From a virus (lineage: Duplodnaviria > Caudoviricetes): DNA of 56,186 bases. Numbering within the stretch: the first letter of the stretch is position 1; every line of letters starts with the position of its first letter. Of the stretch, positions 21,003 through 22,478 are shown piece by piece. Below the pieces are notes generated by a model. That model saw nothing but the letters and a program-made list of their open reading frames with translations, searched no databases and had not been told where the DNA came from. Made by a program: the position numbers and the translations under genes. The stretch covers positions 1-56,186 of the IMG/VR virus record IMGVR_UViG_3300035670_000259. The stretch is one strand, 5' to 3'.

Positions 21003-21031
21003 TTGCTTTATTGCTCTATATAAGTTATATT
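21003..21031 (+). promoter_or_regulatory. Sigma70-type promoter of the attenuated tRNA operon
   Basis: TTGCTT-17-TATATT. Confidence 0.65.
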
Positions 21032-21054
21032 CAATATATAAGGAACAAAACACT

Positions 21055-21123
21055 ATGACACACACAGTATGCTTTTCAAAGCGTTATGAGATTATATTCC
21101 ACACTCCTCGGGAGCGTTGGTAA
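21055..21123 (+). CDS. Leader peptide MTHTVCFSKRYEIIFHTPRERW (putative attenuator uORF)
   Basis: AAGGA RBS at about 21040; last codons overlap the 5' arm of an antiterminator; codons match downstream tRNAs. Confidence 0.7.
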   Translation: MTHTVCFSKRYEIIFHTPRERW

Positions 21124-21184
21124 CGTATAGCTGTGTTTGCTTGTTTACGTGTTCCAACCTCCTACAGTGTTAGGAGGTTTTTTT
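21111..21184 (+). promoter_or_regulatory. Transcription attenuator (alternative antiterminator/terminator)
   Basis: Terminator AACCTCCTA-CAGTGT-TAGGAGGTT plus T-run; competing helix GGAG(C)GTTGG..ACGTA / TACGT..CCAAC-CTCC. Confidence 0.7.
21156..21184 (+). terminator. Intrinsic terminator within the leader
   Basis: 9-bp perfect stem followed by T tract. Confidence 0.8.
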
Positions 21185-21203
21185 ATTGCTTATGAGGTGT
21201 AAA

Positions 21204-21347
21204 ATGAAACGCAAGGAACTGCCGAAGGCACGTAATCCATACGTCCTTCATCTTTCCAAACGCCCATCTGGCGCACACGGAAAGACTAAGAAAGTGGAAC
21301 GTCGTAATGACAAGATGGCGTTGCGTAAAGAATGGGCCGTTAGCTGA
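21204..21347 (+). CDS. Small basic protein (47 aa) whose stop codon lies inside tRNA-Lys
   Basis: GAGGTG RBS; MKRKELPKARNPYVLHLSKRPSGAHGKTKKVERRNDKMALRKEWAVS. Confidence 0.7.
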   Translation: MKRKELPKARNPYVLHLSKRPSGAHGKTKKVERRNDKMALRKEWAVS

Positions 21348-21409
21348 GTTGGTTTTAGCACGTGACTTTTAATCATGGGACATAGGTTCGAATCCTATAC
21401 GGCTCACCA
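21334..21409 (+). tRNA. tRNA-Lys(TTT)
   Basis: GGGCCGT/ACGGCTC; CGTGA-CTTTTAA-TCATG. Confidence 0.93.
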
Positions 21410-21503
21410 TTGTTTTGATGATACACTACTCTAATAGTTGGGATCGCCTTGTAGAAGGCCATGCTTGATGAGACGTTGCAACTAGTGTATCTTCAAAACA
21501 ATG
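21408..21503 (+). ncRNA. Long-stem cassette RNA (repeated stem family)
   Basis: CATTGTTTTGATGATACACTA...TAGTGTATCTTCAAAACAATG, about 20 bp with a single T-T mismatch. Confidence 0.55.
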
Positions 21504-21508
21504 AATAT

Positions 21509-21583
21509 TGTGGCGTAGCTCAGTGGTAGAGCAATCCCCTGATAAGGGATAGGTCAAGAGTTCAAATCTCTTCGCTACAACCA
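21509..21583 (+). tRNA. tRNA-Ile(GAT)
   Basis: ATCCC-CTGATAA-GGGAT; ACCA end. Confidence 0.95.
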
Positions 21584-21590
21584 AAATAAC

Positions 21591-21674
21591 GGGAGTGACG
21601 CCTCAAGGTGAGGCAGCGGACTGTAAATCCGTCGCTGAAAAGCACGTTGGGTTCGATTCCCTTCACTCCCACCA
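21591..21674 (+). tRNA. tRNA-Tyr(GTA)
   Basis: GCGGA-CTGTAAA-TCCGT; variable arm; GGGAGTG/CACTCCC. Confidence 0.9.
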
Positions 21675-21680
21675 CGATAA

Positions 21681-21762
21681 GGTGTGGTGCTCGATTGGTA
21701 AGGGGCGGGATTGCAAATCCCAGGCACGAAAGTAGTGAGTTCGATTCTCACCCACACCTCCA
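21681..21762 (+). tRNA. tRNA-Cys(GCA) with extended variable region
   Basis: GGGA-TTGCAAA-TCCC; GGTGTGG/CCACACC; U73-CCA. Confidence 0.88.
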
Positions 21763-21767
21763 TGATT

Positions 21768-21839
21768 GGTGACACCGCACGGTGCGGACTTGGGTCTCAT
21801 AAGCCCGAAGAGATGGTTCGAGTCCATCTGGCACCACCA
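21768..21839 (+). tRNA. tRNA with CAT anticodon (Met or Ile2), compact atypical D arm
   Basis: GGGT-CTCATAA-GCCC; GATGG-TTCGAGT-CCATC; ACCA end. Confidence 0.8.
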
Positions 21840-21862
21840 AAACTTATTGTAAGGAGAACTCA

Positions 21863-21967
21863 ATGGCTTGTAACTGGTCTAAGATGAATGGTTATTGGTA
21901 CTGTTCTCATTGTGGAAAACAAGTAAAAGATAGTTCTAAGAAAGATTGTCCATTTAAGGCCCCATAG
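21863..21967 (+). CDS. 34-aa Cys-rich (zinc-ribbon-like) peptide, stop inside tRNA-Glu
   Basis: AAGGAG RBS; MACNWSKMNGYWYCSHCGKQVKDSSKKDCPFKAP. Confidence 0.6.
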   Translation: MACNWSKMNGYWYCSHCGKQVKDSSKKDCPFKAP

Positions 21968-22032
21968 ATTACTGGCTAGATCACCGCCCTTTCAAGGCGG
22001 AGGAACGGGATCGATACCCGTTGGGGCTACCA
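21958..22032 (+). tRNA. tRNA-Glu(TTC)
   Basis: CCGCC-CTTTCAA-GGCGG; GGCCCCA/TGGGGCT. Confidence 0.93.
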
Positions 22033-22039
22033 ATATAAT

Positions 22040-22116
22040 GCTTCCGTAGCTCAACTGAATAGAGTAACACGCTACGAACGTGTAGGTTAGGGGTTTGAAT
22101 CCTCTCGGGAGCTCCA
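22040..22116 (+). tRNA. tRNA-Arg(ACG)
   Basis: ACACG-CTACGAA-CGTGT; TCCA end. Confidence 0.93.
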
Positions 22117-22123
22117 ATACTAT

Positions 22124-22198
22124 GCTGGATAAGGTGTACCGGTTGCATTCCTCACTGTGACTGAGGCGGACGTGGTTCGATTCCACTATCCAGTACCA
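22124..22198 (+). tRNA. tRNA-His(GTG), alphaproteobacterial type (no G-1; U72, A73)
   Basis: CCTCA-CTGTGAC-TGAGG; GCTGGAT/ATCCAGT-A-CCA. Confidence 0.88.
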
Positions 22199-22217
22199 AA
22201 CTAAAATAAGTAACTTA

Positions 22218-22293
22218 GCCTAGGTAGCTCAGTTGGTAGAGCAGCGGACTGAAAATCCGCGTGTCGGCGGTTCAATCCCGTCCCTAGGCACCA
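22218..22293 (+). tRNA. tRNA-Phe(GAA)
   Basis: GCGGA-CTGAAAA-TCCGC; ACCA end. Confidence 0.96.
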
Positions 22294-22294
22294 T

Positions 22295-22386
22295 GGAAGT
22301 GGGTGTCGGTACACAGGGAGGTCTTATAAACCTTCTAGCGCCAGATCAGCGTTCTCGACTAGGTTCAACTCCTAGCACTTCTACCA
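22295..22386 (+). tRNA. tRNA-Ile(TAT)-like, short D arm and long variable arm
   Basis: GGAAGTG/CACTTCT; GAGGT-CTTATAA-ACCTT; CTAGG-TTCAACT-CCTAG; ACCA end. Confidence 0.8.
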
Positions 22387-22390
22387 ATTT

Positions 22391-22478
22391 GGACAGGTGG
22401 GCGAGTGGTTTATGCCTGCAGTCTTGAAAACTGCCGAACGGCAACGTTCCGTGGGTTCGAATCCCACCCTGTCCGCCA
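22391..22478 (+). tRNA. tRNA-Ser(TGA)
   Basis: GCAGT-CTTGAAA-ACTGC; long variable arm; GCCA end. Confidence 0.95.

Follow-up and report, generated by a model that had tools for sequence, protein, structure and literature searches.

How does a phage that carries a long array of transfer RNA (tRNA) genes set when, and in what amount, these genes are expressed? Why phages carry tRNA genes at all, and how their products are timed and dosed, is an open question; current ideas are that the tRNAs compensate for codon usage, that they stand in for host tRNAs which have been degraded, or that they allow the phage to evade anticodon nucleases. The locus described here lies in IMG/VR viral record IMGVR_UViG_3300035670_000259, of which the whole stretch of 56,186 bases was analysed (the window). 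Since its completeness is only 18% as estimated by CheckV, the window represents a piece of a very large phage. We report that positions 21003-21184 probably form a ribosome-mediated (leader-peptide) transcription attenuator, which would exert feedback on tRNA supply by gating a gene for a 47-residue protein and a block of 11 tRNA genes.

A preliminary description, made from the letters of this DNA alone, had placed a promoter, a ribosome-binding site (RBS), a 22-codon upstream open reading frame (uORF) and an intrinsic terminator in front of the tRNA block, and the sequence itself, a terminator scan and the list of open reading frames (ORFs) return all four parts at the same coordinates (Table 1). 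The terminator is the only credible one on the + strand within 19500-24000, and just 20 nucleotides (nt) separate its end from the next start codon. The description had also named an independent promoter within 21185-21334 as one result that would undo the idea; a consensus scan, which covers sigma-70-type sites, shows no promoter-like site on the + strand of that interval. Because the terminator stands so close to the next start codon, with no promoter-like site behind it, the genes that follow need read-through in order to be expressed. The promoter-like motif in front of the leader recurs at 22487 and 22941 and, by alignment, upstream of the tRNA-Leu-TAA gene of a related locus, L002 (loci fetched for comparison carry L numbers throughout).

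The first line of evidence for a regulatory role is the codon content of the uORF. As had been claimed, every codon from 6 to 16 has its reader among the tRNAs of the block other than that with anticodon CAT: in order these codons call for Cys, Phe, Ser-TGA, Lys, Arg-ACG, Tyr, Glu, Ile-GAT, Ile-TAT, Phe and His, and together they cover ten of the ten non-CAT tRNAs. Conversely, the uORF holds no Gln, Asn, Gly, Leu, Ala, Asp or internal Met codons, and the block lacks those tRNAs. The chance level of this match was computed in several ways, as the preliminary description had proposed, and the match is far beyond chance in all of them. The probability per window is 1.2e-8 with the codon usage of the window, 4.9e-8 with trinucleotide frequencies and 7e-8 with the codon usage pooled over all loci. 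Among the 112,308 eleven-codon windows in the six frames of this DNA a single one reaches complete coverage, and the windows that reach 9/10 all overlap it, with the exception of one at 4431. Likewise, this leader is the only hit among 25,894 stop-free windows lying upstream of 11-tRNA blocks from 57 sources. When random leaders of the same length and composition were drawn from a first-order Markov model and searched in three frames with 72 combinations of block size, window length and inclusion or omission of the CAT tRNA, none of 37,478 gave P <= 1e-7, 12 reached 1e-6 and 73 reached 1e-5; from these search counts the corrected probability for this leader is about 1e-5. If the gene with anticodon TAT, which is atypical, is left uncounted as a tRNA, the run covers nine of nine and one of its codons then falls outside the set.

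The second line of evidence is the arrangement of the alternative RNA pairings. The antiterminator that had been proposed, in which the end of the uORF pairs with a segment that includes most of the 5' arm of the terminator, exists as a helix of 14 pairs with -17.1 kcal/mol, compared with -15.9 kcal/mol for the terminator alone, and the leader folds better than shuffled sequences (z -3.7). In a crude model of the nascent RNA, folded only as far as the end of the terminator 5' arm (21038-21164), the antiterminator forms with a probability of 0.14 when no ribosome is present; this value is low because the segment that includes the RBS pairs with 21141-21155, and in minimum free energy (MFE) structures this pairing acts as an anti-antiterminator and hides the RBS at the same time. 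With the A site of a ribosome at codons 6-10 the predicted probability rises to 0.70-0.99, and at codons 14-15 it is about 0.9. A ribosome at the stop codon had been expected to mask the antiterminator, and the model predicts as much: the stop codon, 21121-21123, lies within the antiterminator 5' arm and the model gives 0.00 there. In this model, therefore, the nascent RNA switches with the ribosome, and its geometry agrees with that of a trp-type attenuator at the majority of the matched codons, though not at every one.

These parts can be assembled into a circuit. Transcripts starting at the promoter-like site, or further upstream, would carry the uORF, and its translation would couple the leader to tRNA supply. 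A ribosome that proceeds to the stop codon would cover the antiterminator arm, the terminator hairpin would form and transcription would end at the T run; if no ribosome is loaded, the RBS segment would pair with the antiterminator 3' arm and the outcome would be termination too. A ribosome delayed within codons 6-15 would instead allow the antiterminator to form first, and RNA polymerase would read on into the block. Since the stall codons are read by the very species that the block encodes, such a circuit would raise the block tRNAs whenever any of them is scarce, be it the host or the phage copy, and plentiful tRNAs would shut production down, so that the leader would behave as a many-input negative-feedback homeostat. 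Anticodon nuclease activity or starvation could conceivably be the physiological trigger.

Table 1. Coordinates of the leader, of the block behind it and of the flanking features in the window.
Feature	Position	Strand	Remarks
Ornithine/DAP decarboxylase gene	19588-20715		upstream of leader
Promoter-like site, TTGCTT - 17 nt - TATATT	21003-21031	+	TTGCTT 21003-21008, TATATT 21026-21031
RBS, AAGGAA	21041-21046	+	8-9 nt ahead of ATG
5' leader segment including RBS	21042-21052	+	pairs with 21141-21155 when no ribosome is present (MFE structures)
Leader uORF, 22 codons plus TAA	21055-21123	+	ATG 21055, TAA 21121-21123; would encode MTHTVCFSKRYEIIFHTPRERW
Run of 11 matched codons (uORF codons 6-16)	21070-21102	+	
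Antiterminator 5' arm	21111-21127	+	spans last uORF codons, stop codon and 4 nt more
Antiterminator 3' arm	21146-21162	+	shares 7 of 9 nt of terminator 5' arm
Intrinsic terminator	21156-21184	+	hairpin 21156-21179 (9-bp stem, 6-nt loop), then seven T; -15.9 kcal/mol
ORF for basic 47-residue protein	21204-21347	+	first gene past terminator; last 14 nt, including stop codon, within tRNA-Lys
tRNA-Lys (TTT)	21334-21409	+	ARAGORN, Rfam
tRNA-Ile (GAT)	21509-21583	+	ARAGORN, Rfam
tRNA-Tyr (GTA)	21591-21674	+	ARAGORN, Rfam
tRNA-Cys (GCA), 82 nt	21681-21762	+	ARAGORN, Rfam
Atypical 72-nt tRNA, anticodon CAT	21768-21839	+	ARAGORN; Rfam 27 bits against a threshold of 29
Zinc-ribbon-like ORF, 34 residues	21863-21967	+	stop codon within tRNA-Glu; weak Pfam matches under cut-off
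tRNA-Glu (TTC)	21958-22032	+	ARAGORN, Rfam
tRNA-Arg (ACG)	22040-22116	+	ARAGORN, Rfam
tRNA-His (GTG)	22124-22198	+	ARAGORN, Rfam
tRNA-Phe (GAA)	22218-22293	+	ARAGORN, Rfam
92-nt tRNA-like gene, anticodon TAT, long variable arm	22295-22386	+	ARAGORN; in Rfam matched by the tRNA-Sec model alone (30 bits; threshold 47)
tRNA-Ser (TGA)	22391-22478	+	ARAGORN, Rfam; last of block
Next promoter-like site, same motif family	22487-22515	+	3' border of tRNA block

Is this leader a single oddity? A terminator screen of the fetched loci flagged 22 loci besides the window with the same design: a near-consensus sigma-70 promoter, the word AAGGA, which thus stands before the uORFs of related leaders as it does here, a uORF of 19-38 codons, a spacer of about 30 nt, a terminator and then tRNA genes. 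Their terminators have -15 to -23 kcal/mol with T runs of T4-T7, and often a tRNA-Cys gene begins only 8-11 nt past the T run, with no promoter in between. Within the tRNA array these cassettes occupy a different place from that of the leader in the window. The peptides fall into about ten families that share short motifs and cannot be aligned by eye. Four larger arrays that were fetched whole (L060-L063) contain exactly one strong cassette each; its position is syntenic, with Arg-TCT, Leu-TAA and Met-CAT ahead of it and the block that includes Gln, Pro, Trp, Cys and Lys behind it. For almost every family, the MFE fold of the nascent RNA joins the 5' arm of the terminator to the G-rich tail of the uORF, and the arm is released once the modelled ribosome gets to the last codons. 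This complementarity belongs to each family: the mean pairing energy of the arm is -15.8 kcal/mol with its own family and -12.3 kcal/mol across families (permutation p 1.6e-4 over ten families). Unlike the leader of the window, most of these leaders form the antiterminator also without a ribosome. That about ten leader families share the design points to a general feature of one group of large aquatic phages, not to an isolated curiosity.

Do the codons of these other leaders also follow the tRNAs behind them? Most of the arrays are cut 2.5-3 kb from the anchor, and start codons were left out of the counts. Within these bounds, 10 of 11 leaders contain codons for every one of the six tRNAs that come first downstream, with a null mean of 2.7-4.1, and Fisher's combination over eight families gives 3.9e-6, 1.5e-5 and 5.8e-6 when six, eight or ten tRNAs are considered (K=6, K=8 and K=10). 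A Cys codon is present in 11 of 11 families (p 3.7e-6), and Trp codons outside the arm occur in all five families with a tRNA-Trp downstream and in none of the three that lack one (p 0.018). In L055 seven consecutive codons cover the next eight tRNAs (seven in L018, L036 and L037) with P 1e-7 for L055, a match that is only suggestive because it was picked from 1,690,703 nested tests, among which about 0.17 such matches would be expected before nesting is taken into account. Gln and Asn codons are present in all the other leaders, most of which are followed by Gln tRNAs and several by Asn tRNAs; the ATA codon is found only in the leader of the window, and it is only behind this leader that a gene with anticodon TAT lies within ten tRNAs. 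The leader of the window is thus the shortest but one of the class and the most tightly matched, and across the class as a whole codon matching is modest. The preliminary description had proposed to test in related phages whether uORF codons co-vary with the tRNAs downstream; the match there is partial, with the coverage and the associations of Cys and Trp in its favour, and the specificity of leaders for their own arrays is weak, as detailed below.

Several results weigh against an attenuator that reads tRNA supply, and we gather them here and with the alternatives that they favour. (i) In an equilibrium model of the complete leader, with a 28-nt ribosome footprint at varied positions, the terminator forms with a probability of 0.76 whatever the position of the ribosome. 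The proposal to fold the leader with and without a ribosome thus gives a switch in the nascent RNA and none at equilibrium, and because the equilibrium terminator forms at every ribosome position any switch must be kinetic, as in trp. (ii) In the nascent-RNA model the antiterminator probability is just 0.03-0.24 for stalls at codons 11-13 (Tyr, Glu and Ile-ATT), where the freed 5' end pairs across the stalled ribosome, a pairing that may be unrealistic, and it is 0.00 from codon 16 (His) onwards through the stop codon. A stall at any one matched codon had been suggested to open the block; by the same model, codons 6-10, 14 and 15 favour the antiterminator and codons 11-13 and 16 do not, so that not all ten inputs are predicted to work. 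(iii) Every control codon is single, with the exception of Phe, which occurs twice, in contrast to the tandem control codons of classical attenuators. (iv) Although ARAGORN confirms all 11 tRNAs and their anticodons, at 21334-22478, only nine of them reach the gathering score of Rfam and two lie below threshold. (v) The leader has a narrow distribution: a blastn search found no homologue of it in the other 62 loci fetched, an exact 33-mer of it is absent from IMG/VR, and it is missing from all 44 loci that have a relative of the 47-residue ORF, 13 of them viral and 31 from metagenomes, in which a TTGACA-type promoter or another small conserved ORF stands upstream of that ORF instead. It is present, nearly unchanged, in Logan contigs of four DNA runs from four studies, and the variants listed there within 20956-21200 are two bases upstream of the promoter and A21175G, the only one inside the structured leader, with which a terminator pair changes from U-A to U-G and is thus retained. 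The uORF itself is invariant across the four runs and hence offers no co-variation evidence of its own.

The alternative that survives best accepts the coupling to translation and drops the specificity: the leader would be a general attenuator that senses overall translation speed or ribosome availability, as in host shut-off or stress, and its codons would simply reflect a maximally mixed peptide. We regard this as unlikely, though it has real points in its favour at the level of the class. The related peptides are unusually diverse (8 of 10 lie above the null mean of distinct residues, Fisher p 1.2e-7), a property that fits a many-tRNA sensor and a general sensor of translation speed alike. 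A leader covers the array of another family nearly as completely as that of its own (p 0.006, 0.11 and 0.06 at K=6, 8 and 10), and 97 of 223 codons, or 43%, belong to the set of the first ten tRNAs, where 78.5 are expected (p 0.006). Codons for Tyr, Arg, Asn, Pro and His occur where the tRNA is unseen downstream, a point limited by the cut loci, and the combined p values given above overstate independence because the families may be distant homologues. Moreover, tRNA-Cys is the sole tRNA behind the terminator of family B, and a gene on the opposite strand comes next, as judged by eye, yet the uORF of 38 codons has only one Cys codon. What speaks for specificity is, first of all, the window: its 11-codon run matches its own block exactly, including the isoacceptor-specific codons ATA, CGT and TCA, it has no codons for Gln, Asn, Gly, Leu, Ala or Asp, amino acids with tRNAs encoded elsewhere, and under a null of sampling without replacement the match is, by our own rough estimate, still at about 1e-7. 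In the pooled peptides of the class, Cys (3.2-fold) and Met (2.8-fold) are enriched, mostly the first tRNAs after the terminator, as is Gln, and Val and the common residues Ala, Asp and Leu are depleted; the association of Trp codons with tRNA-Trp points the same way.

A second alternative, which we consider distinctly improbable, is that of an ordinary cassette, in which a 22-residue micro-protein is expressed from a promoter of its own, constitutive read-through of a leaky terminator supplies the tRNAs and the codon match is a coincidence. Small ORFs abound in the tRNA regions of large phages, and several are found here. In families A and B it is the amino-acid sequence of the peptide that is conserved, the changes in the C-terminal half being synonymous, as expected for a real peptide. 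The closest syntenic relatives of the window, L002 and L003, found via the decarboxylase (84% identity in that protein, synteny at 70-80% over long stretches), have the same 11 tRNA species in slightly different order directly after the decarboxylase gene, and they manage with neither the leader nor the 47-residue ORF, another point against our reading; by blastn, only the first 47 nt of the leader, its promoter part, match them. Against this, the coincidence remains at about 1e-5 after the search over frames, lengths and blocks, a plain gene has no need for a 3' end complementary to its own terminator arm, which is what is seen across families, and the near-consensus promoters of the related cassettes would serve a peptide of about 30 residues only, with tRNAs lying 8-11 nt behind the terminator and lacking promoters of their own. 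The weakest alternative, that the uORF is untranslated and the hairpin serves the upstream unit (decarboxylase, tRNA-Asp, Gln and Thr) as its terminator or for 3' stabilisation or processing, the block being fed by leak-through or by an unrecognised phage-specific promoter, is very improbable: it can appeal to the weakness of the promoter in front of the leader, with 8/12 consensus matches and unlisted by the consensus scan (a further point against the attenuator), to a near-consensus promoter (11/12) at 20608-20636, which drives the upstream tRNAs and whose transcription runs into the leader terminator, to the pairing of the RBS in the full-length fold and to the restriction of our scan to sigma-70-type sites, but the upstream transcripts would include the uORF as well, the RBS word and its spacing are common to the other leaders, the frame of family B is maintained across a 2-codon indel, and a codon match and a stop codon within the antiterminator arm would be meaningless without translation.

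If the attenuator is real, how did so tight a match arise in a leader so sparsely distributed? The block itself is a mosaic: its Lys, Cys and CAT genes are nearer to the L016 group, and its Tyr, Arg-ACG, TAT and Phe genes are nearer to L002. Taken together with the tight match, this comparison of sequences suggests that the uORF may have been tuned to the mosaic block after recombination.

The mechanism proposed is that of the textbook, and the comparison with known systems shows where the locus departs from it. Like the trp, his, leu and phe leader-peptide attenuators, it has a short uORF near the promoter, control codons upstream of an antiterminator arm that a terminating ribosome would mask, and an intrinsic terminator directly before the first gene. 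Termination without translation, known from trp-type leaders, has its counterpart here in the RBS pairing, which would play the role of the 1:2 pairing, and the spacing is similar, with 61 nt from the stop codon to the T run. In contrast to these systems, the leader gates phage tRNA genes and a small protein rather than biosynthetic enzymes, uses ten different single codons rather than a tandem run for one amino acid, and would sense the tRNA species themselves rather than an amino acid. The ilvGMEDA (Ile, Leu, Val) and thr (Thr, Ile) leaders come closer in that they combine several codon types in one peptide, so that any shortage relieves termination; however, they address two or three amino acids with repeated codons and have biosynthetic targets, whereas ten tRNA species with one codon each (Phe apart) are involved here. 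The pheST attenuator, with its pheM leader, regulates a translation component by the level of charged tRNA, as is proposed here, but it is cellular, responds to one amino acid and yields a synthetase, while the present target is viral and consists of tRNAs. T-box riboswitches share with our locus a leader RNA that chooses between terminator and antiterminator in response to a specific tRNA; in a T-box, however, the specifier codon and the T-box motif contact the uncharged tRNA themselves and no translation is involved, whereas the element of the window has a translatable uORF with an RBS, and no Rfam family, T-box included, matches 21000-21200 at the gathering threshold or at E <= 1.

In the literature searched, a sample in which older work may be missing, we came across no tRNA genes, of phages or of cells, that are controlled by a leader-peptide attenuator, and neither a viral tRNA target, nor many single-codon inputs, nor recurrence as a class was found described there. 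Leader-like ORFs upstream of E. coli tRNA-Phe genes may have been discussed in the 1980s. If true, our reading would for the first time tie the supply of viral tRNAs to the demand for tRNA through regulation, and would extend attenuation from one amino acid to about ten tRNA species at once. Extended to the class, the proposal becomes more tentative, with the balance tipping slightly against it: a class of large environmental phages may control tRNA arrays by attenuators whose codons sample the downstream tRNAs, each acting as an OR gate, or homeostat, in which the loss of any of about ten tRNAs through host decay, starvation or anticodon nuclease switches on the replacements, here together with the 47-residue gene and with a leader retuned after recombination. 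Since the whole element is under 200 nt and can be moved to reporters, the idea is directly testable, and a compact natural sensor of the availability of individual tRNAs could also serve as a tool.

The first gene that read-through would reach encodes a small basic protein, which is highly conserved over the window and L016-L059, with 47-54 residues and invariant K8, R10, N11, P12, V14-R20 and G23-H25. Its relatives, sought with a longer frame that begins at a TTG start as query, comprise the 13 viral and 31 metagenome loci mentioned above, at 70-90% identity, and the eight variant sites listed for the ORF over the four runs are all third codon positions. No family match for the protein was found in Pfam, PHROGs, a PDB profile search (E <= 10), NCBIfam, Atlas, cultured phages (tblastn) or a scan of bacterial genomes. 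In all of the 13 viral loci checked, the 3' end of the ORF overlaps tRNA-Lys, as in the window; since the stop codon sits within the tRNA, excision of tRNA-Lys would leave a non-stop mRNA for the 47-residue protein. The position of the stop codon was the reason to suspect an ArfA-type ribosome-rescue factor, an assignment that we dropped as unsupported, every family search being empty. The overlap of the 34-residue ORF with tRNA-Glu mirrors that of the 47-residue ORF with tRNA-Lys.

Both atypical members of the block recur in other loci. The CAT tRNA stands beside tRNA-Cys in related loci as well, and the TAT gene, whose long variable arm is unusual for an Ile tRNA, is kept with 91-92 nt in L002 (7906-7997), L003, L024, L025, L027 and L028, which span both phage groups. 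A tRNA-Tyr (GTA) gene at L002 7210-7293, 73/84 identical to that of the window and plainly readable, was missed by ARAGORN, and because the gene is missed in L002 and L003 alike, tRNA lists from one program are incomplete here. Between tRNA-Lys and tRNA-Ile, contigs from three of the four runs join 21426/27 to 21484/85; the 56-58 nt skipped in this way (21426-21485) are bordered by a 9-nt inverted repeat and look like a small indel polymorphism. Of the sampled words, 5-7% are present in the six runs listed as RNA or possibly RNA. In loci L020, L021, L029, L030 and L044 of the leader class, an opposite-strand ORF with a lipoprotein-like signal peptide was seen by eye between the gated tRNA-Cys and the next promoter; an opposite-strand ORF in this place means that the terminator of family B may gate one tRNA only.

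The block belongs to a larger tRNA region, with 31 tRNA genes found by ARAGORN in the window, all of them on the + strand and within 10851-25383. No near cultured phage was found, either by megablast of 20950-22550, which returned only a 50-nt tRNA-like match, or by tblastn against cultured phages. Two structured RNAs lie inside this region, a GOLLD RNA at 17572-18017 (209 bits) and a manA RNA at 16859-17065 (55.5 bits, barely above threshold), and L002 has matching stretches. A tRNA with anticodon CTA, which reads TAG and is labelled Pyl by ARAGORN, is located at 16187-16261 and kept in L007, L010, L011, L015, L060, L062 and L063; its conservation hints at amber suppression or recoding, and TAG is the stop codon of several related leader uORFs. 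In L007-L012 (tag ANENFAPKAFALAA) and L014 (tag ANENFAPEAFALAA), more distant relatives to which the decarboxylase led, a transfer-messenger RNA gene is present a few kb downstream. Finally, the window encodes a T4-type RNA ligase 1 at 48688-49848 (Pfam RNA_lig_T4_1, E 1.4e-29). In T4, the enzyme of this family mends tRNA cut by anticodon nuclease, and against this background the presence of the ligase is compatible with a conflict over tRNA damage.

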